Below, one piece after another: positions 1-52,174 of a stretch of DNA of 64,000 nucleotides. This DNA comes from an uncultured Parcubacteria group bacterium (GTDB lineage: Bacteria > Patescibacteriota > Patescibacteriia > UBA9934 > CAMTUG01), in NCBI GenBank assembly GCA_947084965.1, contig CAMTUG010000001.1, positions 276,206 through 340,205 of the forward strand. The letters are read 5' to 3'. Made by a program: the position numbers and the translations under genes. The notes under the pieces were generated by a model. The model was given only the letters and a program-made list of their open reading frames with translations, was not told the origin of the DNA and did not search any database. The stretch's first letter is position 1. Each line of letters starts with the position of its first letter.

Positions 1-907
1 AAAGATCAAGAAGCACGCCTTTCACCTGTTGATCTTTTCGATCCTTCTCCTGATCCTAGTTTTTATCCCAGGGATCGGATCGAGCTTTGGAACTTCGCAT
101 AGCTGGATTACGCTTGGCGGACTGTTTTCGATTCAGCCGGCCGAGATCGTCAAGCTGACCTTTTTGTTTTATCTCGCGGCCTGGCTGGAAAAGCGCGGCG
201 GGGTTGTCAAAGATCTGGATGGACTGATGCCGTTTCTGATCGCCCTTGGATCGGTGCTTTTTCTGATCGCCCTTCAGCCAGATACCGGCACCATGGCGGT
301 GATCGCGGGGATGTCGTTCATCGTCTACTTTGTCGCCGGCGCTCCGATTCTTCATTTGGCTGGACTTGGAGGGATTGGGGCGGTCTTTTTGCTCATCCTC
401 ATTAAATCATCGACCTATCGCGCCGAACGATTCATGGCTTTTTTACACCCCGAGCTTGATCCCCAGGGGATCGGGTATCATATTAACCAGGCACTTCTGG
501 CGATTGGCTCTGGTGGGTTATTCGGTTTGGGCTACGGCTTGTCGCGTCAAAAGTTCGAGTACCTGCCGGAAGTCGTCGGAGACTCGATCTTTGCAGTGAT
601 CGCTGAAGAGATGGGATTCGTGATCGCCGCCGGTTTGGTCGTTCTCTTCGTCGCCTTTTTGTGGCGCGGCATGAAAATCGCCAAAGCAGCGCCCGACGCT
701 TTTGGGAAATATTTGGTCGTCGGGGTTGTTTCGTGGATTACGATTCAGGCCTTTGTGAACATCGGTTCGATGACCTCGATCATGCCGATGACCGGAGTGA
801 CGCTGCCATTCGTCAGCTACGGCGGAACGTCGCTCGTAGTGTGTATGTCGGCGGTCGGGGTGGTGCTTAGTGTGTCACGTGGAAACTATGGGAATGCAAA
901 ATCCTAA
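1..907 (+). CDS. ftsW: SEDS-family peptidoglycan polymerase FtsW/RodA, 5'-truncated by the window edge
   Basis: The frame is open from base 2 to TAA at 905-907. The product is a polytopic membrane protein with the C-terminal SEDS-like 'MPMTGVTLPFVSYGGTSL'. It lies directly upstream of murG. Confidence 0.85.
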   Translation, partial: KIKKHAFHLLIFSILLLILVFIPGIGSSFGTSHSWITLGGLFSIQPAEIVKLTFLFYLAAWLEKRGGVVKDLDGLMPFLIALGSVLFLIALQPDTGTMAVIAGMSFIVYFVAGAPILHLAGLGGIGAVFLLILIKSSTYRAERFMAFLHPELDPQGIGYHINQALLAIGSGGLFGLGYGLSRQKFEYLPEVVGDSIFAVIAEEMGFVIAAGLVVLFVAFLWRGMKIAKAAPDAFGKYLVVGVVSWITIQAFVNIGSMTSIMPMTGVTLPFVSYGGTSLVVCMSAVGVVLSVSRGNYGNAKS

Positions 908-1018: not shown

Positions 1019-2098
1019 ATGAAAGTCATGCTCACAGGCGGAGGAACGCTCGGTCCGGTGACGCCGCTTTTGGCGATCGCCGAAGTCTGGCGTCGGGAAG
1101 ATATCCGTGCGGAGTTTGTCTGGATCGGCACACCTGGCGGACCGGAACGGAGCGTTGTCGAAGCGGCCGGGATCCCATTTCATCCTTTGTTTGTTCCTAA
1201 GCTTGATCGTTATGCTCCCGGGAAGTGGGTGTTCATTCCCTTTCGGTTGCTTTGGTCGATGAAGATGGCCCTGCACCTGATTCAACGCGAGCGGCCGGAT
1301 GTGGTGGTGACGGCTGGGGGGTATGTCAGCGTTCCGCTCCTGTGGGCCGCCAAGCTGTACGGCATCCCAACCTGGGTGCATCAGCAAGATGTGCGCGCCG
1401 GACTTGCCAATAAACTCATGGCGCCGTTTGCGACCAAGATTTCCGTCGCTTGGACGCGGTCGCTGCACGCGTTTGATGAGAAAAAGACGATCCATATCGG
1501 GAATCCGGTACGGGATTCTGTTTTGCACGGATCGCAGCAACGCGGGGCGGAGCGATTCGGATTTGATCTGTCGCGTCCAACGGTTCTGGTTTTTGGTGGT
1601 GGCACGGGCGCGGCCTGGATCAATCACGCGATCGCTCAGGTCGTTCCTGAATTGTGTATGACCGCGAATGTTCTGCATATCACCGGGCGAGGGAAGTTGA
1701 CGTCGGTCGAGCCTCGACCAAACTATCAGGCCGTAGAGTTACTCACGACCGAGATGCCGGATGCGCTCGCTCTCGCCGATCTGGTCGTCTGTCGTGCTGG
1801 CATGGCCACGATTTCCGAACTTGCCGCATTAGCCAAACCGGCGATGGTGATTCCGATCCCAGATTCGCACCAAGAAGATAACACCGCCGCCCTAGAAGAA
1901 CTCAGTGCTGCGGTGATTGTTCACCAGGCGCAGACAACGCCGCAGATGCTCTTGCAGCACATCCTTGGTTTTCTTGAGAATCCAGAAGAACGACGTAAGC
2001 TCGGTGCGCGACTGCACGCCGCGTTACCAACCACGGACGTTGCCCTCAAACTGGCGCATCATTTGGAAGCTATGGTAAAACAAGGATCCTCCCGCTAA
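1019..2098 (+). CDS. murG: UDP-GlcNAc:lipid I GlcNAc transferase MurG
   Basis: 359 aa. N-terminal 'GGGTLGPVTP' G-loop and C-terminal 'CRAGMATISELAALAKPAMVIP', typical of MurG (GT28). dcw-type context. Confidence 0.9.
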   Translation: MKVMLTGGGTLGPVTPLLAIAEVWRREDIRAEFVWIGTPGGPERSVVEAAGIPFHPLFVPKLDRYAPGKWVFIPFRLLWSMKMALHLIQRERPDVVVTAGGYVSVPLLWAAKLYGIPTWVHQQDVRAGLANKLMAPFATKISVAWTRSLHAFDEKKTIHIGNPVRDSVLHGSQQRGAERFGFDLSRPTVLVFGGGTGAAWINHAIAQVVPELCMTANVLHITGRGKLTSVEPRPNYQAVELLTTEMPDALALADLVVCRAGMATISELAALAKPAMVIPIPDSHQEDNTAALEELSAAVIVHQAQTTPQMLLQHILGFLENPEERRKLGARLHAALPTTDVALKLAHHLEAMVKQGSSR

Positions 2099-2154
2099 CC
2101 AGAAAAGCTCCCCATAAACATGAGAAGCTTTTCTGGTGCGCTGGGCGGGGATCG
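2091..2154. repeat. Direct repeat copy 1 (64 nt): murG stop, hairpin, and CCA plus the last 18 nt of tRNA-Lys
   Basis: Read base by base, it is identical to 2265-2328 ('cccgctaaccagaaaagctccccataaacatgagaagcttttctggtgcgctgggcggggatcg'). Confidence 0.9.
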
Positions 2155-2264
2155 TCCGTCGTGAGCCTCCCCATAGGGGCTTCCGCCCCTCTGGTCGTCG
2201 CTTCGCTCCTGTCACCCCCGGCATGTAAGGGGAGTGCCTCCCCTTACCATCCCCTCGTCCGATC

Positions 2265-2328
2265 CCCGCTAACCAGAAAAGCTCCCCATAAACATGAGAA
2301 GCTTTTCTGGTGCGCTGGGCGGGGATCG
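2265..2328. repeat. Direct repeat copy 2 (64 nt), overlapping the 3' end of the intact tRNA-Lys
   Basis: Perfect copy of 2091-2154, offset by 174 bp. It continues into the complete tRNA-Lys on the minus strand. Confidence 0.9.
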
Positions 2329-2382
2329 GACCCGCGACCTTGGGCTTAAAAGGCCCCTGCTCTACCACTGAGCTACCAGCGC
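2308..2382 (-). tRNA. tRNA-Lys (anticodon UUU), CCA encoded
   Basis: The reverse complement reads GCGCTGG-TA-GCTC-AGTGGTA-GAGC-A-GGGGC-CTTTTAA-GCCCA-AGGTC-GCGGG-TCCGATC-CCCGC-CCAGCGC-A-CCA. This folds as a cloverleaf with one A/G mismatch at the base of the anticodon stem. Confidence 0.85.
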
Positions 2383-2433: not shown

Positions 2434-3114
2434 ATGGGACTCAAGCATTTAGCAATGATCCTGGACGGCAACCGTCGGTGGGCAAAATCTAAGGGCTTAC
2501 CGACGCTCGAAGGCCATCGCCGCGGGTACGATAATGTGAAGACGATCGGGCTCGCTGCCCTCGAACGTGGGGTTGAGCAGTTCACTGTTTTTGCCTTTTC
2601 CACGGAAAACTGGAAGCGCTCCGAAGAGGAGGTTGGTTATTTGATGGATCTGTTGCACCACGCCCTCACGGCCGAAGTTGATTTTTACATGAAGCACAAC
2701 GTGCGCTTACGCGTGGTCGGTCGGCGCGAAGGATTGTCGGAAAAGATGATCACGGCGATTGGTGCGGCAGAGGCAAAGACGGCAGGGAACACGGCAGGAC
2801 AGATCAATTTGTGTATCAATTACGGCGGGCGGCCAGAGATCGTCGATGCGGTCAAGGCGCTCGTGGCCGACGGGGTTAAGCCAGAGGACGTGACCGAGGA
2901 TTTGCTCGCTTCGAAGATGTGGATGGCCGGGATCCCGGACCCTGATCTGATCGTGCGTACTTCGGGTGAACAGCGTCTGTCTGGGTTTCTCACGTGGTCA
3001 GGGGTGTACAGCGAACTATTATTTGTAGATAAACACTGGCCGGATTTTTCCGTTGAAGATTTAGATGCTGCGCTTGCCGAGTTTGATCAGCGTGGACGAA
3101 GGTTTGGCAAGTAA
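2434..3114 (+). CDS. uppS: Undecaprenyl-diphosphate synthase (cis-prenyltransferase)
   Basis: 226 aa with the 'ILDGNRRWAK' and 'RTSGEQRLSGFLTWS' motifs. Confidence 0.9.
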   Translation: MGLKHLAMILDGNRRWAKSKGLPTLEGHRRGYDNVKTIGLAALERGVEQFTVFAFSTENWKRSEEEVGYLMDLLHHALTAEVDFYMKHNVRLRVVGRREGLSEKMITAIGAAEAKTAGNTAGQINLCINYGGRPEIVDAVKALVADGVKPEDVTEDLLASKMWMAGIPDPDLIVRTSGEQRLSGFLTWSGVYSELLFVDKHWPDFSVEDLDAALAEFDQRGRRFGK

Positions 3115-3120
3115 GGGGAC

Positions 3121-3149
3121 TTGTCAGTGCCAGTTGCTTTTGATACGTT
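3121..3149 (+). promoter_or_regulatory. Sigma70-like promoter for the zinc-finger ORF
   Basis: TTGTCA (3121-3126), a 17-nt spacer, then TACGTT (3144-3149). AAAGGAG at 3161-3167 precedes ATG 3172. Confidence 0.45.
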
Positions 3150-3171
3150 CCTGCCGTCCCAAAGGAGTCCC

Positions 3172-3741
3172 ATGCCCCCTCGTTCTTCCGCCCCCGCCGG
3201 TCTCTCCTGCTCCTTCTGCACCAAGGCCGCCAACACCCCTGAGGTGAAGAAGGTCATCGCCGGCGTAAACGTCTACATCTGTGACGTCTGCGTCAAGGGG
3301 ATGGTCGCGCTCGTCGTTGTCCAACGTCCGGCTGACGCATCCTACCTCCTGCGTCGGCCCGAGCTCGATCTGCGCACCTTCACCATGACCGTCACGGGGT
3401 CGACGACGCTCGGTGACGTGCTCGGCTGGTACCTGCGTGTCTACCGTACGTTCCCTCACCTCCCCAAGGAGACCGGGACGGTCATCACGAGTGCTGCCTG
3501 CCGATTCTGCAGCCGGGTCGACCAGGTCGTGATCAGCCGCCTCGCGGCCAACATCTGCCTCGACTGCCTGCGGGACGTCGCCAAGATCCTGCTCAAGGAC
3601 GACCCTGCGCCGTCCTACCTGGTGCGTGATGCGGTGCTCGACTTGTGCCCGTTCGCCACCCTCCGCCTCGACGTGGATGAGCCGCACACCATCGGCGATG
3701 TTCTCAACGCCTACACGACCGCATCTCCGCCGCTGAACTGA
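3172..3741 (+). CDS. Two-module protein with tandem ClpX-type C4 zinc fingers (orphan, GC3-rich)
   Basis: The motifs 'CSFC...YICDVC' and 'CRFC...NICLDC' are each followed by a related module ('LDLRTFTMTV..TLGDVLGWY' and 'LDLCPFATLRL..TIGDVLNAY'). Hand counts give 42/60 G+C in the first 60 nt and 25/30 G/C at codon position 3. AAAGGAG lies upstream. The track start at 3121 falls inside the putative promoter, so ATG 3172 is preferred. Confidence 0.7.
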   Translation: MPPRSSAPAGLSCSFCTKAANTPEVKKVIAGVNVYICDVCVKGMVALVVVQRPADASYLLRRPELDLRTFTMTVTGSTTLGDVLGWYLRVYRTFPHLPKETGTVITSAACRFCSRVDQVVISRLAANICLDCLRDVAKILLKDDPAPSYLVRDAVLDLCPFATLRLDVDEPHTIGDVLNAYTTASPPLN

Positions 3742-3778
3742 TCTTCGGCAGCTCACCTCGGCCGCCGATCTATACGGA

Positions 3779-3860
3779 ACGCCGCTCGGAATACTCCCGG
3801 GCGGCGTCTGAACTTAATTGAATTTCAAACCGCGCTCGTCCAGGACGGAGAGCGCGGATT
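3779..3860. terminator. Two GC-rich hairpins between convergent genes
   Basis: The first hairpin is 'acgccgctcgg-aatact-cccgggcggcgt'. The second is 'ccgcgctc-gtccaggacgg-gagcgcgg', which is followed by TTT on the minus strand. Confidence 0.55.
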
Positions 3861-3863
3861 TGA

Positions 3864-5048
3864 TTACGGTCGTTCCTTGGGGCGGAGGAAGTAGAGGACG
3901 ATCGCGAGAATGACGAGCAGTCCGCCGGAAGCGAGCCAGACGTCAGCGATGTTCGCCGGCGTGTCCTCGCGGCCGGACATGTAGAAGGCGAGTGAGAAGA
4001 GGACGATCGCGGCGCCGATCTCTTCCATCAGCGACTGCAACGATCCGAACGTCGAGCGGTATTCGCTCGTAACGTGGTGGTTGGTGTAGCTGTCGAGGAG
4101 CGGTCGGAACGCCCCGCGGCCGACTTCGTGCACCACGCCCATCACGAGGACCAGTCCAAGCCCAGGAACTTGCCCGATGAGCGCCAGGCCAACCCCAGCG
4201 ACGACGAGGGCGATCATCACGGCTTTGGCTTCGGCCCCTGAAGCGATCTTCGCTTTGCGAATGATCATCCCGGCGATGAAGAGCGCCAGATAGAGCGGGC
4301 TCCAGATCAGTCCGAGCTGGCTGGTGGCCACAAACTGCTCGAAGTACTTCGGCCAGTAGTGGTTGAACGCCACGACCAGACCGCTCACCATCCCTACCGC
4401 CACGGCCCAGCGCAGCGCCGAGCTGTTGCGCAGGGCATTGACGCTCCGCTTGAGCGCCTCTTTCTCGCTGACCTTTTCGTGGGCCAGTACTTCGCCGTCG
4501 CCGTTCATGTAGCGGGTGACGACAAAGAGTCCGACGAGAGCAAAGAACGCACTAGCGATCCACGGCCACCGAAGGCCGAAGGTCGATCCGATCCACGAGC
4601 CAAAGATCGCCGCCGGTGCGGCCAGCAATCCTTTGACGATCGCGGCGTTGGCGAACGTCTGCCCCTTTTCGTTTTCGCGATTGTGCAACTTCAAGGCGTC
4701 GACGATCCAGGCCTGCTGAATCCCCGAGAGGAAGGTGAAGGCCAAACCGTTGACCACTTCGGCCGCCAGCGCCCACCAGACGTTCTCTGCCAGGAAGTAG
4801 ATCGCGTTGCCCAGAGCGAAGATCAGGAAGCCGATGCGCAAGGACCAGGCGCGGGAGCGGGCGTCGGCCCACATCCCGGTCGGGACTTCGAAGAGGATGA
4901 TCGCCACCCAGAACCAACCGTTGACCATCGAAACCTGGCTCAAGGTGAGCCCGATCGAGGTGAGGAACGGAACGTAGGTCGCCGTGGTGACCATGAACAT
5001 CAGGCCCAGGGCGGCGGAGAAGAGGATGTAGGCGCGGGAAGGGGACAT
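3864..5048 (-). CDS. MFS-type transporter (GC3-rich)
   Basis: 394 aa, hydrophobic, with roughly 12 TM segments of MFS type. 28/30 G/C at codon position 3 in the first 30 codons. GGAGG lies just upstream of the ATG. Confidence 0.8.
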   Translation of the reverse strand: MSPSRAYILFSAALGLMFMVTTATYVPFLTSIGLTLSQVSMVNGWFWVAIILFEVPTGMWADARSRAWSLRIGFLIFALGNAIYFLAENVWWALAAEVVNGLAFTFLSGIQQAWIVDALKLHNRENEKGQTFANAAIVKGLLAAPAAIFGSWIGSTFGLRWPWIASAFFALVGLFVVTRYMNGDGEVLAHEKVSEKEALKRSVNALRNSSALRWAVAVGMVSGLVVAFNHYWPKYFEQFVATSQLGLIWSPLYLALFIAGMIIRKAKIASGAEAKAVMIALVVAGVGLALIGQVPGLGLVLVMGVVHEVGRGAFRPLLDSYTNHHVTSEYRSTFGSLQSLMEEIGAAIVLFSLAFYMSGREDTPANIADVWLASGGLLVILAIVLYFLRPKERP

Positions 5049-6424: not shown

Positions 6425-6550
6425 TATGAAAATACGAAATCCGGAAATCGAAATTCGAAACAAATCAGAATCGGAAAGGGAAAATTTCAAACCTTTCACT
6501 TTTTTCTCTTTTCCGATCGTTTCGAATTTCGATATTTGAATTTCGAATAT
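6425..6550. repeat. AT-rich hairpin (family A/B) filling the GT4-ATPase junction
   Basis: 'atcgaaattcgaaac' (6447-6461) pairs perfectly with 'gtttcgaatttcgat' (6519-6533). 'atcggaaag' pairs with 'ttttccgat'. It shares 'aaatacgaaa' and 'aatcggaaag' with the element at 906-1018 and ends at the ATG of the next gene. Confidence 0.7.
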
Positions 6551-19509: not shown

Positions 19510-19583
19510 TCCGGGATCGTCTAATGGCAGGACAGCGGCCTTTGAAGCCGTGAATCGTGGTTCGAATCCACGTCCCGGAACCA
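19510..19583 (+). tRNA. tRNA-Gln (anticodon UUG), CCA encoded
   Basis: Acceptor TCCGGGA/TCCCGGA, anticodon arm GCGGC-CTTTGAA-GCCGT and T arm CGTGG-TTCGAAT-CCACG. Confidence 0.85.
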
Positions 19584-19591
19584 AGAAAAAT

Positions 19592-19616
19592 GACCAGCGC
19601 GTGCTGGTCGTTTTTC
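19592..19616 (+). terminator. Intrinsic terminator after tRNA-Gln
   Basis: 'gaccagc-gcgt-gctggtc' followed by 'gttttt'. Confidence 0.8.
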
Positions 19617-19662
19617 TTTGTCGACGTGGATTCGAATGGGAAGAGGTGCCTCGCCCTGGGCC

Positions 19663-30332: not shown

Positions 30333-30348
30333 TCGTGCGTCAGGTCGG

Positions 30349-30726
30349 CTAGCGTGCGACGACCACGTAGATGCCGTCGCGGTACTGACCGAGGAGGTAG
30401 AAGATCAGACCCTCGACCGTGATCCGCAGCGGGCGCAAGTGCGGCTCGAGCGGGACCGTGCCAAGGAGCATCCTTTCGACCGTGGCGGTGGTGCCGCCCA
30501 GCCGCAGGATGTGCACGGCGCTGATGGCGGGGTGGACCTGGGCCTGCAGCGTCCGGATGATCGCTGTGATGATCGGGTTGGGCGTGCCAGGCTTCGTGCC
30601 GGCCAGCTCGCCAGACGCGAGCTCCTCGCGCCGGATCGCGAGGGTGACCATGATCGGTCGGATGCGCAGCTCGGCCTCGGGCCCGAGCGTGGTACGAAGG
30701 TGGTTGCGCAGTCGGGCGGTGTCCAT
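30349..30726 (-). CDS. Orphan soluble protein (GC3-rich)
   Basis: 125 aa starting 'MDTARLRNHL'. 42/60 G+C in the first 60 nt and 26/30 G/C at codon position 3. ACGGAG lies 7 nt before the ATG. The longer track ORF (to 30780) would run through its own promoter. Confidence 0.6.
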   Translation of the reverse strand: MDTARLRNHLRTTLGPEAELRIRPIMVTLAIRREELASGELAGTKPGTPNPIITAIIRTLQAQVHPAISAVHILRLGGTTATVERMLLGTVPLEPHLRPLRITVEGLIFYLLGQYRDGIYVVVAR

Positions 30727-30751
30727 GGCAGATCTCCGTTGGGGACCCTGG

Positions 30752-41343: not shown

Positions 41344-41688
41344 ATGTCCGAGTCCGTCACCGCCTTCCGTCCCGATCCGGCCAAGATCTACGAGATCACG
41401 CTCCTCGAGGGCGACGTGGATCAGATCTGGAACCTCGCCCACGAAGGGGGTCGTTCGATCCTGCTTCTCGTGCGAGACCAGGCCGATCCCGCCGCGCCCG
41501 AGCAGGGGCTCTCCCTCATCCTCTACTCCGTCGCCTGGGAGGGCGGCGACAAGGAAAACCACCCGAACGAGGTCGTCGTCCGCGGCCGCATCCACGGCCG
41601 TACCGCGGACGAGCCGAACCCGGTGATCGGGTTTTGCTGGGACGACAAGTCCCGGACCGGTCTCCTCAACGTGGTCCTCCCGGTCTAG
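41344..41688 (+). CDS. Orphan soluble protein (GC3-rich)
   Basis: 114 aa starting 'MSESVTAFRPDPAKIYEITLLEG'. 27/30 G/C at codon position 3. AAGGAG lies 5 nt before the ATG. The longer track ORF from 41176 is out of context because it overlaps uvrC. Confidence 0.65.
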   Translation: MSESVTAFRPDPAKIYEITLLEGDVDQIWNLAHEGGRSILLLVRDQADPAAPEQGLSLILYSVAWEGGDKENHPNEVVVRGRIHGRTADEPNPVIGFCWDDKSRTGLLNVVLPV

Positions 41689-51559: not shown

Positions 51560-51609
51560 AAAAACAGAAGCGCGCACCCGGAGAGAGCGGCTAGCCGGGT
51601 GGGCTTCTG
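51560..51609 (-). terminator. Terminator of the membrane-anchored orphan
   Basis: The minus strand reads 'cagaagcccacccgg...ccgggtgcgcgcttctg' followed by 'ttttt'. Confidence 0.65.
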
Positions 51610-51632
51610 CCGCGCTTCAGGTGCGCGTGACC

Positions 51633-52100
51633 TCAGCCGTAGAAGCCGAGGCGTTGGTAGAGGTGGGGTGGGAAGGAGACGCTGGGGGTCAGCGCCTGGT
51701 CCTCTGTGGTCGAGGTGGCGACGACCTGGTTGGTGCCGAGGTCCGTGTTCACGAAGAACTGGAACTCGACCGCTCCGGTCCCGAAGAAGGTGGAGATCAC
51801 GGCCACGCCCTGCTCGTTCGAGCGGACGTACCCGTAGTAGTCGAACCCGCTGTAGCCGATCAGCGGGATCTCGAGCTTGAACCCGACCAGCGCGCAGAAC
51901 GGTCGGTCGCCCCTGAGGACGATGTTCTGCATGCTGCGCTCGAGCCCTTCCGCCTTCGCACCGCGGTAGGTGTAGCGGACCATCTGGTTGGAGTACTTGA
52001 TGAAGTCGGCCATGAAGCCGAACTTCTTCAGGAATTCCTTGCTGAGGAAGACCGCCAGTGTGGTGGAGAGGACGAGGCAGGTGGTGAGGAGAACGGTCAT
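51633..52100 (-). CDS. Membrane-anchored (or lipo-)protein, orphan, GC3-rich
   Basis: 155 aa. 'MTVLLTTCLVLSTTLAVFL' is a hydrophobic N-terminus containing a Cys. 27/30 G/C at codon position 3. AGGAAGG lies before the ATG. The other long ORFs here are off-frame shadows. Confidence 0.65.
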   Translation of the reverse strand: MTVLLTTCLVLSTTLAVFLSKEFLKKFGFMADFIKYSNQMVRYTYRGAKAEGLERSMQNIVLRGDRPFCALVGFKLEIPLIGYSGFDYYGYVRSNEQGVAVISTFFGTGAVEFQFFVNTDLGTNQVVATSTTEDQALTPSVSFPPHLYQRLGFYG

Positions 52101-52145
52101 CGGAACCTTCCTGTAAGCCGCGGCGGGGATGCCATGCGGGGGATG

Positions 52146-52174
52146 AATATAGCATATTTTGGGCAAAAAGTCAA
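52146..52174 (-). promoter_or_regulatory. Promoter of the membrane-anchored orphan
   Basis: The minus strand reads TTGACT (52174-52169), a 17-nt spacer, then TATATT (52151-52146). Confidence 0.5.

Follow-up and report, generated by a model that had tools for sequence, protein, structure and literature searches.

A 110-bp insert at a tRNA-Lys gene as a member of a conserved, gene-less family of elements at tRNA and tmRNA 3' ends in Patescibacteria

Results

A repeat of the tRNA-Lys 3' end between murG and uppS

We analyzed a 64-kb stretch of DNA (the window, at its full length) in which the tRNA-Lys gene between murG and uppS is followed by a short insert and a second copy of the tRNA 3' end. 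The features of the locus are:

1019–2098, + strand: murG, an open reading frame whose homologues have Glyco_transf_28 domains
2091–2154, no strand: left (distal) repeat copy, with the murG end, a hairpin of ~17 pairs (2099–2136), and a displaced tRNA-Lys 3' end
2134–2154, – strand: displaced partial tRNA-Lys 3' end (DR), tRNA positions 56–76 including CCA
2155–2165, – strand: 3' tail of the element, CUCACGACGGA on the tRNA strand, from the alignment
2166–2256, – strand: conserved core, family R1 (cmsearch 104.1 bits, E 7e-18)
2257–2269, – strand: anti-T-arm (IR-L), GCGGGGATCGGAC, the exact reverse complement of tRNA-Lys positions 53–65
2265–2328, no strand: right (proximal) repeat copy, with a hairpin (2273–2310) and the 3' end of the intact tRNA
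2308–2382, – strand: intact tRNA-Lys(UUU), called by ARAGORN and Rfam (69.5 bits)
2434–3114, + strand: uppS, the conserved flank 5' of the tRNA, with gene order kept in relatives

The repeat is exact and cannot be attributed to chance. A repeat search of the window found that 2091–2154 and 2265–2328 are 100% identical over 64 nt, with a start-to-start distance of 174 nt, and that this is the sole direct repeat longer than 36 nt within the 64 kb. The full tRNA is present only at the right copy, which provides the last 21 nt of tRNA-Lys (18 nt and CCA); no tRNA was called at the displaced end (2134–2154). The breakpoint is within the T-loop UCCGAUC, which has C at position 55, and falls between tRNA positions 55 and 56. 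The identity of the two ends continues for 43 nt beyond CCA, across the hairpin to the murG stop codon (2096–2098), and the last codons and stop of murG (TCC CGC TAA) are inside the left copy. MurG has 359 amino acids, the same length as in P0002, a relative with 87% identity. An exact 64-nt repeat with the tRNA-Lys 3' end and a T-loop breakpoint had been noted in a preliminary description of this DNA, and the repeat search together with ARAGORN and Rfam confirmed it. That description gave the hairpin an 11-bp stem; the actual fold in each repeat copy has ~17 pairs and includes the CCA of the tRNA. The hairpin was not called as a canonical terminator in a simple consensus scan because its T-run is within the stem.

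The insert (2155–2264) is 110 bp, has a GC content of 66% compared to 53% for the window, and contains no plausible gene. It has no second copy in the 64-kb window (self-BLAST). Two possible origins were rejected: a decayed 5' half of a tRNA, based on the lack of similarity by self-BLAST, and a foreign murG C-terminus, based on the same lack of similarity and on stop codons in the murG frame.

The insertion is lineage-specific. A single tRNA-Lys 3' end and no insert are present in relatives whose MurG proteins are 87%, 70%, and 63% identical (empty sites L071, L072, and L002), in agreement with the earlier proposal that the duplicated tRNA 3' end is the signature of an insertion. The aligned tRNA-Lys sequence is identical in these loci, and in the nearest relative the spacer differs from that in the window. 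For the tmRNA gene of locus L073, there are empty sites in L081 and L085.

A conserved core at different tRNA and tmRNA genes

The core of the insert is conserved at other loci. A core of ~95 nt was also found in six unrelated metagenome contigs, with 74–90% identity. With the R1 covariance model that we built for this analysis, six of these seven copies (the window and six contigs) scored 95–104 bits and a degenerate copy (L074) scored 48 bits. The copy in the window is full length and has the top score of the seven (104 bits). The model found exactly one copy per locus across 614 kb, and none in about 70 other Patescibacteria loci. The boundaries of R1 are equal in every complete copy; one copy (L078) is cut by the end of its contig. 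Six of the seven copies are located 3' of a tRNA or tmRNA gene and on the same strand, and the genes are those for tRNA-Lys, -Phe, -His, -Met, and two tmRNAs.

These findings bear on the earlier proposal that the 110 bp is the remnant of a deleted island, that is, a larger island at tRNA-Lys that was reduced to 110 bp with attL and attR left adjacent. A direct repeat of a tRNA 3' end with a breakpoint in the T-loop would be expected from such a deletion, as would DNA that is GC-rich relative to the genome. However, the same sequence with the same boundaries is present at six other loci, five of them beside different tRNA or tmRNA genes, the window copy is complete and scores best, and there is no integrase fragment or remnant of an open reading frame. 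Seven copies with identical boundaries are therefore not leftovers of random deletions, and we consider a deleted island very improbable. Judged by sequence comparison, the 110 bp represents a complete micro-element without genes, of a conserved kind found at tRNA and tmRNA 3' ends in Patescibacteria.

The core is flanked by two segments that match the neighboring gene. On the tRNA strand, the class has a constant layout: the intact tRNA up to CCA is followed by a spacer, in most cases a hairpin resembling a terminator; next come the T-loop and 3' T-stem in antisense and then the structured core (~95–105 nt); and the tRNA 3' end, from the T-loop onward, is repeated in sense orientation after the core. 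In the six gene-linked copies, the core is a few nucleotides past the 3' spacer of the gene, usually a hairpin, and the left end of the element is 2–12 nt past the hairpin in seven of eight loci. All six also have, abutting the core, 11–13 nt that are exactly antisense to the T-loop and T-stem of the local gene, and these antisense T-arms are the only matches of at least 11 nt in each segment. After the core, five of the six have an 18–24-nt sense copy of the gene 3' end (T-loop to CCA), which starts at tRNA position 53–59 and includes CCA. The gene encodes CCA at all five of these loci, and in the four other than the window the sense copy stops exactly at CCA. The anti-T-arm fits the intact T-arm (11–13 nt) better than the distal copy (5–11 nt). 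In the other loci, the spacers after the two CCA ends are no more alike than shuffled sequences, and we rejected the idea that they are diverged duplicates.

The window copy has each of these segments. The anti-T-arm (2257–2269) is an exact 13-nt reverse complement of the T-arm (2319–2331), and its outer 5 nt (GCGGG) also form the end of the right repeat copy. The inverted copies could pair over 10 bp in single-stranded DNA. At the other end, the tail CUCACGACGGA matches the GCGACG-type tail that precedes DR in other copies.

We rejected three possible origins of the anti-T-arm: fold-back synthesis, hairpin opening of the P-nucleotide type, and end hairpins of the IS608 type. The antisense copy has tRNA positions 53–55, which are absent from the sense copy; in addition, the core separates the two arms and the first hairpin is not conserved between copies. 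The anti-T-arm itself is a feature that was absent from the preliminary description of the locus.

Structure of the core

The core is predicted to fold on the tRNA strand. It consists of a hairpin P1 (2225–2247), a variable middle segment, and a hairpin P3 with a GGAA loop (2171–2194), and the window copy has five runs of at least four G on the tRNA strand. The predicted fold of the window element has a free energy of –66.7 kcal/mol (z –4.3). G-U pairs are compatible with the tRNA strand only (RNAalifold and pair counts).

We considered the possibility that the insert is a resident, non-mobile gene for a non-coding RNA that arose by local duplication and acts, for example, on the tRNA via the anti-T-arm. 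The stable fold is consistent with this, as are the conservation of a GNRA-type loop, a compensatory C-G to U-A change in P3, a hairpin of variable length at a fixed position within the R1 alignment, and a strand that is always that of the tRNA. On the other hand, presence and absence vary between close relatives; the 64-nt repeat is perfect, which suggests a recent event; there are at least five kinds of target gene (tRNA-Lys, -Phe, -His, -Met, and tmRNA); and the element is rare, given its absence from the about 70 other loci. In addition, we found no promoter-like site at 1900–2500, and a hairpin is directly upstream of the element. We regard a resident RNA gene as highly doubtful.

The element matched no known RNA family. 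In the window, the tRNA was the only real match to Rfam 15. In the other loci, the real matches were to tRNA and tmRNA only, and the remaining matches, with E values up to 10, were far below gathering scores; a weak tmRNA_permuted match in L075 (29.8 bits, gathering score 47) covers the end of the tmRNA. Hammerhead and hairpin ribozymes, group I and II intron domains, SRP RNA, and permuted tmRNA were rejected, as no defining motif was seen by eye and Rfam gave no match.

Sister inserts with unrelated cores

Two further inserts have the same layout and are unrelated in sequence, one at tRNA-Asp in L085 and one at tmRNA in L098. L085 has a perfect repeat of ~66 nt with a spacing of 188 nt and an exact antisense copy of the local T-arm, and, as in the window, the spacer after the first CCA is the same as that after the second. 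In the window and L085, the long perfect repeats extend 43–46 nt past CCA, through the host hairpin, and by our reading of the sequences the sense copy in both stops 16 nt beyond the G+C-rich stretch of the stem. We rejected the L085 core and a tRNA-Gln relic as distant R1 members, based on scores of ~0 bits with the model filters off.

The insert in L098 can be compared to an empty site with nearly identical flanks. The insertion is 212 nt at the tmRNA gene, and the empty contig L103 and the filled contigs (L098 and six others) have flanks that are 97–98% identical. The first CCA is followed by a new hairpin and the second copy by the native terminator. In this sister element, the first hairpin and the sequence that follows the regenerated CCA thus arrive with the insert, and the native terminator stays after the distal copy. 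This topology matches that described for tDNA islands by Islander (PMC4383910).

A false duplication, in which contigs were joined at the tRNA, would also produce a direct repeat. No independent assembly that spans 2091–2328 was found (there was no exact match for MurG, and UppS led to one Logan contig), and the Logan contig of the same strain (ERR3478686_95423), which is 100% identical to the window, begins at 2353, inside the tRNA. But this break is 25 nt outside the repeat, in tRNA sequence that is common to several related species, the unique 110 bp is a conserved element that is found in the same context in independent JGI assemblies, and L085 has the same architecture with its ~66-nt repeat. 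We consider an assembly artefact extremely improbable.

Searches for enzymes and autonomous relatives

We found no candidate enzyme in the DNA that was searched. Among the open reading frames scanned in the 64-kb window there was no recombinase, transposase, or reverse transcriptase and no RNA-guided effector (TnpB, IscB, Cas12k, or IS110 recombinase), and the window has no tyrosine-recombinase motif. Inspection of the lists of open reading frames near L073 and L077 revealed no recombinase and no long, effector-like frame. A search with the concatenated six-frame translation of the insert, seeking spurious open reading frames over the other copies, gave no match in the protein collection at E ≤ 10.

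The preliminary description had raised an attP-bearing element with an integrase, and none turned up in viral contigs, phages, or plasmids; nor was there an autonomous relative in these collections or beside the six metagenome copies. Scans of viral contigs with the repeat hairpin, the insert hairpin, the tRNA end, and P3 gave zero matches, and a scan with the 5' motif of the core gave two chance matches inside phage coding sequence. BLAST against phages and plasmids gave a single, insignificant 34-nt match. A literature search for small, non-autonomous elements that target tRNA genes found only papers on classical islands and prophages and on eukaryotic SINEs.

Discussion

Duplicated tRNA ends are routinely taken as the footprints of islands or prophages. 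Here, the duplication marks a conserved, gene-less unit of 110–212 bp, and Patescibacteria, whose genomes are very small, have such units beside a range of tRNA and tmRNA genes. Software that searches for islands can be misled by them, and they may explain why the DNA immediately following CCA is hypervariable in these genomes.

A mobile attachment site

The interpretation that we favor, at about an even chance, is that of a non-autonomous miniature element for which the T-loop is the integration site and the enzymes come from elsewhere. Entry would most likely be as for tRNA-targeting integrative elements, by recombination in the T-loop at about position 56/57, after G53-T-T-C56. The inserted DNA would bring a replacement tRNA 3' end and a terminator, the tRNA would stay whole, and the original tRNA 3' end would be displaced to the far side of the insert. 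As the element has no genes, the recombinase would have to come in trans, and the element would amount to hardly more than an attachment site that moves. In the window, the identity of the repeat ends at an overlap of TTAGCGGG/GCGGG with the element's own anti-T-arm, and we infer that a stretch of the host locus was captured or copied via this microhomology. Since the hairpin is duplicated, murG and tRNA-Lys keep one each.

Known elements provide precedents for several of these steps. Islands in tDNA, as defined by Islander, regenerate their target and the displaced fragment marks the far end (PMC4383910), and mycobacteriophage Ms6 integrates into the T-loop of tRNA-Ala and can be retargeted by changing the attP core (PMC1762012). 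The similarities to integrative elements that target tRNA and tmRNA genes, namely prophages and genomic islands with tyrosine integrases such as Ms6, include the T-loop site, the regenerated tRNA, the displaced 3' fragment as a direct repeat at the far end, the orientation set by the tRNA, the empty sites in relatives, the use of tmRNA, and the post-CCA sequence supplied by the L098 insert (PMC4383910, PMC1762012). In contrast to these elements, the inserts are 110–212 bp and gene-less with no integrase found nearby, their structured core is conserved, they carry the target T-arm in exact antisense, and in two cases the repeat runs 43–46 nt beyond CCA, through the host hairpin. We know of no described attP with a structured core and an antisense T-arm.

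Several observations speak against this interpretation. We found neither an integrase nor another recombinase in the window or among the frames listed for L073 and L077, and the collections searched gave no full-length relative. A standard attP needs no inverted copy of the core site ~100 nt away, and the distal junction has no half-site resembling the 5' T-stem beside the loop. The spacers after the first CCA have no similarity between R1 members despite cores that are 74–90% identical. In the window and L085, the first and second spacers are identical, and that in the window includes the murG stop; a simple element-borne terminator does not predict identical spacers, and an extra step of capture or copying would be needed in two independent cases.

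If it is a mobile attachment site that borrows an integrase, the unit would be about the smallest integrative element known to us and would mark an active recombination system in Patescibacteria. Cis-mobilizable elements (CIMEs) are att-flanked DNA without recombination genes that is mobilized by the integrase of a related element; they are kilobases long and are derived from ICEs by deletion. The inserts are similar in that attL- and attR-like repeats surround DNA without a recombinase, implying dependence in trans, but differ in being units of ~0.1–0.2 kb with conserved boundaries and no parent element found.

Folded attachment sites offer another comparison. Integron attC and the CTX-phi attP(+) used by XerCD are attachment sites that form by folding of a single strand. 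In the inserts, the two inverted site copies, ~100 nt apart, could pair and rebuild a duplex target, and the DNA between them is itself structured. However, the stem would be 5–11 bp, the inverted copy fits the intact T-arm better than its would-be partner, and the target is a tRNA T-arm and not dif or attI.

Templated insertion

An alternative is a templated, retro-type insertion in which the unit combines the anti-T-arm and the core with a sequence copied from the 3' portion of the tRNA transcript. A polymerase or reverse transcriptase would copy the tRNA 3' end back to the T-loop and then copy the element, and the product would be joined after the hairpin; copies that end in CCA would come from mature tRNA, and the 64- and 66-nt repeats from an unprocessed transcript or the gene. 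The window repeat holds host-specific sequence, including the murG stop, and was therefore copied from the local locus, which favors this mechanism. Also in its favor are the 2–12-nt distance between hairpin and element in seven of eight loci, the G-U pairs that fit the tRNA strand only, and, in the two long-repeat loci, the end of the copy 16 nt beyond the G+C-rich stretch of the stem. The start of the copy at position 53–59 is in a zone of frequent stops in the reverse transcription of tRNAs (m1A58). At all four loci with differing spacers, CCA is the exact end of the sense copy, but this boundary does not discriminate because CCA is encoded in the gene at all five loci with a sense copy. 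In L098/L103, the hairpin after the first CCA is not native, and that sister element was therefore not inserted after the native terminator. Furthermore, no reverse transcriptase was found among the window's frames, there is no promoter-like site for an element RNA and the element is behind a hairpin, and no simple copying scheme makes the anti-T-arm. We think that templated insertion is rather unlikely.

RNA-guided insertion

Homing directed by RNA seems improbable to us. A guide RNA would have the core as its scaffold, and its antisense T-arm and copied tRNA end would serve as guides for an effector encoded elsewhere, similar to TnpB omega-RNA or Cas12 crRNA (3' guide) or IS110 bridge RNA (both strands). 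TnpB omega-RNA, the homing crRNA of type V-K CRISPR-associated transposons (CASTs), and IS110 bridge RNA are guides of RNA-guided mobile elements, and the inserts resemble them in having a scaffold with a ~20-nt 3' match to the target, a tRNA gene as target, and insertion some tens of nucleotides downstream of the matched site. The scaffold of ~95 nt is 74–90% identical and the two segments that flank it vary with the neighboring tRNA; the 3' segment of 18–24 nt is guide-sized; and the matched site in the gene is preceded by a near-universal G-T-T-C, possibly a PAM- or TAM-like motif. The distance from this motif to the insertion is 57–78 nt (64 and 66 nt in the two recent insertions), and type V-K CASTs are directed to tRNA genes, with insertion 60–66 bp from the PAM. 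However, there is no effector gene among the window frames that were scanned, no Rfam match to an omega-RNA, bridge RNA, or crRNA-like family, and no sign of the characteristic transposon ends (Tn7-, IS110-, or IS605-like). The two putative guides have overlapping target sites and are mutually complementary, covariation in the scaffold is thin (two pairs changed on both sides), and the target duplication is long, compared to 0–5 bp for RNA-guided transposons.

It is conceivable, though doubtful, that a ~100-nt scaffold carries functional, exchangeable targeting segments in the form of the antisense T-arm and the sense tRNA 3' end. They would be either guides for an RNA-guided insertion system homing to tRNA and tmRNA genes or products of tRNA-templated copying by reverse transcription. 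Were these segments to guide or template insertion, this would be a new mechanism of insertion directed by base pairing at a universally conserved target, and the units would represent a novel type of bacterial micro-element, with target recognition by base pairing and not via an att site recognized by a protein.

Small non-coding repeats and other GC-rich DNA

The inserts are like MITEs, REP/BIME, Correia, and RPE sequences in being small, non-coding, structured, and intergenic. Unlike those of MITEs, the inverted sequences at the ends vary between loci because each is a copy of the local target; the 64 kb contain a single copy, as does each related locus; the duplication is 18–66 nt, with no short target-site duplication; and the association with tRNA and tmRNA 3' ends is strict. 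The preliminary description noted a similarity in composition to other GC-rich patches of the window. A kinship was not borne out: those patches share no sequence with the insert and are whole small genes, for example those for a ClpX-zinc-finger protein and an MFS transporter.

An element is inserted at tRNA-Lys in the window

The 3' end of tRNA-Lys is duplicated around a GC-rich insert. A repeat search confirmed the perfect 64-nt direct repeat carrying the tRNA-Lys 3' end that a preliminary description, made from the sequence alone, had reported. Its copies have a spacing of 174 nt and are the sole direct repeat longer than 36 nt within the 64-kb window. The features of the locus are:

1019-2098, plus strand: murG, its 3' end inside the left repeat copy
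2091-2154 and 2265-2328: the two repeat copies
2155-2264: the insert between them, 110 bp
2166-2256: conserved core (family R1)
2257-2269: antisense (anti-)T-arm of 13 nt, the perfect reverse complement of 2319-2331 in the T-arm
2308-2382, minus strand: tRNA-Lys(UUU), Rfam score 69.5 bits

The last 21 nt of the tRNA come from the right repeat copy, and the breakpoint of the repeat falls between tRNA positions 55 and 56, in the T-loop (UCCGAUC); uppS lies on the far side of tRNA-Lys from the repeat. Each copy contains a hairpin of ~17 pairs, CCA included, which a simple consensus scan did not call a canonical terminator because the T-run is inside the stem. The insert has a GC content of 66% (versus 53% for the window) and no second copy within the window. 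The anti-T-arm had been missed in the preliminary description. The tRNA-Lys T-loop (within 2319-2335 of the window) has a C at position 55, where U is near-universal, and this C is kept in the window and in the relatives L002, L071, and L072.

The insertion is specific to the window lineage. The predicted MurG assigns the window to the Patescibacteria (CPR), with 87%, 70%, and 63% identity to the proteins of L071, L072, and L002, respectively. All three relatives have the same tRNA-Lys sequence beside murG, where its 3' end occurs once and the insert is absent; the insertion is therefore restricted to the window lineage, and the proposal of an insertion event at a tRNA was right. Even L071 has a different murG-tRNA-Lys spacer, of 13 nt versus 35 nt in the window. 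From 2353 on, the window has a 100% identical counterpart in a Logan assembly of run ERR3478686, which begins inside the tRNA, so that the repeat is outside its span.

The relatives differ in other respects. The tRNA-Lys of L072 (1364-1438) is on the murG strand, the reverse of its orientation in the window, L071, and L002; rearrangement at this locus is recurrent. An insert of ~150 nt, absent from the window, lies 5' of tRNA-Lys in L071 (1510-1677) and, partially conserved (80%), in L072 (1446-1516). Its ends are perfect 19-nt inverted repeats (GAAGACCCTTTGTGCAATA ... TATTGCACAAAGGGTCTTC). It had no Rfam match and may represent either a MITE or a small RNA.

The insert belongs to a conserved family

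Copies of the insert core are present in other genomes. A metagenome scan with the hairpin of the insert, its loop left free, found six contigs (L073-L078). By BLAST, ~100 nt of the insert was conserved in five of these (74-87% identity), beyond the hairpin alone, and ~50 nt was conserved at 90% in L074. A covariance model built from six copies, R1, scored those copies at 95-104 bits and the degenerate L074 copy at 48 bits. The suggestion that the 110 bp might be the remnant of a deleted island is unsupported: the insert is a conserved element found on six metagenome contigs, and the window copy is the best-scoring one (104.1 bits). The model found no further copy in 614 kb of Patescibacteria loci and the rest of the window, and no Rfam family matched the element. 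The core consists of:

Hairpin P1: GUAAGGGGAG, 3-nt loop, CUCCCCUUAC; outer pairs extend it
Beyond P1: a GGGGGUGAC segment, then a hairpin of variable length
Hairpin P3: GAGGGGC-GGAA-GCCCCU

Covariation in R1 was modest: in two pairs both partners changed (C-G to U-A in P3), and a small number of G-U pairs are compatible with the tRNA strand only. Most pairs are invariant, which for the P1 stem was imposed by the search pattern. Both strands fold well (tRNA strand, z of -4.3; opposite strand, z of -3.9). The element is clearly conserved and structured, and could act as RNA, single-stranded DNA, or a protein-binding duplex.

The copies share a common anatomy. Six of the seven are directly 3' of a tRNA or tmRNA gene and on the same strand (window, tRNA-Lys; L077, tRNA-Phe; L076, tRNA-His; L074, tRNA-Met; L073 and L075, tmRNA); the seventh, L078, is cut by the contig end. 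The order along the tRNA strand is constant: intact gene with CCA, spacer, anti-T-arm, core. The spacer after the first CCA is 37-58 nt and consists of a strong hairpin plus 2-12 nt in seven of eight loci examined. The anti-T-arm abuts the core and is an exact 11-13-nt reverse complement of the T-loop and 3' T-stem of the element's own target gene, from tRNA positions 51/53 to 63/65. These antisense pieces are the only T-arm matches of at least 11 nt in each segment and track unusual T-loops (e.g., UCCGAUC and UGAAAUU), and are therefore target-specific rather than due to chance.

After the core, five loci have a sense copy of 18-24 nt of the gene's own 3' end, starting at position 53-59, mostly 56/57, just past G53-T-T-C56. 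In the four of these outside the window, the sense copy stops exactly at CCA, and the sequences after the first and second CCA are unrelated. Among R1 loci, only the window repeats the spacer too, and this accounts for the 64-nt length of its repeat.

In L076 (~800-830) the spacer before the anti-T-arm ends in TTAGCGGGTGATTGA, in which the 8-mer TTAGCGGG from the window repeat end recurs. TTAGCGGGTGATTGA looks like a decayed anti-T-arm for a tRNA with a CCCGC stem, and it may be a leftover of an earlier target.

Unrelated sequences have the same layout

The search for empty sites turned up two further insertions that have this layout and an unrelated sequence. In L085, a tRNA-Asp locus (1-300; tRNA 272-349, minus strand), a perfect ~66-nt direct repeat at a spacing of 188 nt contains the tRNA 3' end from the T-loop and a 46-nt hairpin region. 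The ~122-nt insert is GC-rich, has an exact 12-nt anti-T-arm, and folds at -66.6 kcal/mol (z of -4.35). Its core is unrelated to that of the window, and L085 is a second, independent case of the long-repeat form.

Filled and empty sites were found at a tmRNA gene. Contigs that encode identical SmpB and have flanks 97-98% identical differ by a 212-nt insertion, filled in seven contigs (L098 to L102, L104, and L107) and empty in L103:

L098 2714-2945 versus L103 2608-2627: tmRNA 3' end, filled and empty

Compared with the empty site, the filled one has an additional 20-nt copy of tmRNA positions 57-76 and another 192 nt that are 43% GC and non-coding, with their own hairpin. This new hairpin stands after the first CCA; the terminator native to the empty site comes after the second copy. 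Past its hairpin, the insert has a T-arm-like hairpin with 12/16 positions matching the antisense T-arm.

A second tRNA in the window has an antisense piece:

19510-19583: tRNA-Gln
19584-19640: region with a strong hairpin and then the antisense piece
19623-19636: GACGTGGATTCGAA, exact 14-nt antisense of the tRNA-Gln T-loop and 3' T-stem

The piece is at the same position as in the tRNA-Lys element. Neither an R1 core nor a sense copy of the tRNA 3' end is present at the site, and the antisense piece is probably what is left of another element of this class.

The same tmRNA as in L073, lacking the element, is present in close relatives whose SmpB is 93-94% identical. In all of them the DNA diverges completely from the first base past the tmRNA CCA, suggestive of frequent turnover there. 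A multi-hairpin module of ~160 nt, 84% identical between L073 (2731-2891) and L082 (83-243), starts right after CCA, of a displaced tmRNA end in L073 and of tRNA-Asp in L082.

Origin of the insertions

The window insert is most likely a miniature, non-autonomous integrative element, by analogy with two known systems. For integrative elements targeting tRNA and tmRNA genes, the Islander paper (PMC4383910) describes a topology in which the incoming sequence regenerates the target and a displaced 3' fragment marks the far end; L098 and L103 have this topology. Phage Ms6 integrates at the T-loop and can be retargeted by changing the attP core (PMC1762012). It is on this topology and this T-loop integration that our reading of the insert is based. 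The element would have entered at the tRNA-Lys T-loop, using a recombinase provided in trans. The window ORFs that were scanned included no integrase, transposase, TnpB, or reverse transcriptase, and no full-length parent element was found in viral, phage, or plasmid collections. What is new, within tRNA-targeting integrative elements, is a gene-less conserved micro-element with a target-matched anti-T-arm, to our knowledge undescribed and absent from Rfam.

Two features are unexplained by integration of this kind. One is the anti-T-arm; we know of no attachment site in which the core site has an inverted copy at a distance of 100 nt. The antisense piece matches 11-13 nt of the intact T-arm but 5-11 nt of the distal copy, which makes a folded single-strand site of the attC or CTX-phi type possible but not compelling.

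The other is the long repeats. The proximal spacer of the window equals the distal one, including murG's own last codons and stop, and murG has the length of its 87% relative and an end only two bases different; it follows that the stretch was copied locally. The last 5 nt of the repeat (GCGGG; 8 nt with the preceding TTA) coincide with the start of the anti-T-arm, and the repeat end looks like a microhomology junction. The same 8-mer is also ahead of the anti-T-arm region in L076. Long repeats might arise if aberrant excision captured host sequence that then re-integrated via extended homology, or through a templated copying step. That L085 has this form independently speaks for a regular mechanism and against an accident.

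Because these two features are unexplained, two rivals to the integrative element stay alive. The sense copy could be a copy of the mature tRNA or primary transcript, made in a templated, retro-type insertion, which would explain the exact CCA boundary in four loci and, in both long-repeat loci, a boundary lying 16 nt beyond the G+C-rich portion of the hairpin stem. Alternatively, the two tRNA-matching segments could be guides on a conserved scaffold in RNA-guided homing. The L098/L103 pair argues against insertion after the native terminator for the L098 element only; no filled/empty pair was found for the R1 family itself. We consider a mechanism directed by base pairing, as guide or template, unlikely; if true, it would be categorically new.

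Other observations in the window

GC-rich genes (60-68%, in a 53% GC genome) are at 3121-5048, about 30340-30730, 41344-41688, and about 51600-52150, and look horizontally acquired. They include an MFS transporter, small ORFs without a Pfam match, and a protein with two ClpX-type zinc-finger-like repeats, of which Pfam matched only the first; both genes whose start regions were read have AAGGAG ribosome-binding sites. The tRNA-Lys insert shares no sequence with these cassettes, leaving the link once drawn between them unsupported. GC-rich ORFs are also near the small elements in L078 and L098.

The ftsW-murG spacer (905-1018) has inverted arrays of a 7-nt unit around an AT-rich spacer, with CGAAACA repeats on the left and GTTTCGTATTTCG... 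repeats on the right. ORF translations hint at a possible similar array near 6.5 kb (about 6440-6530).
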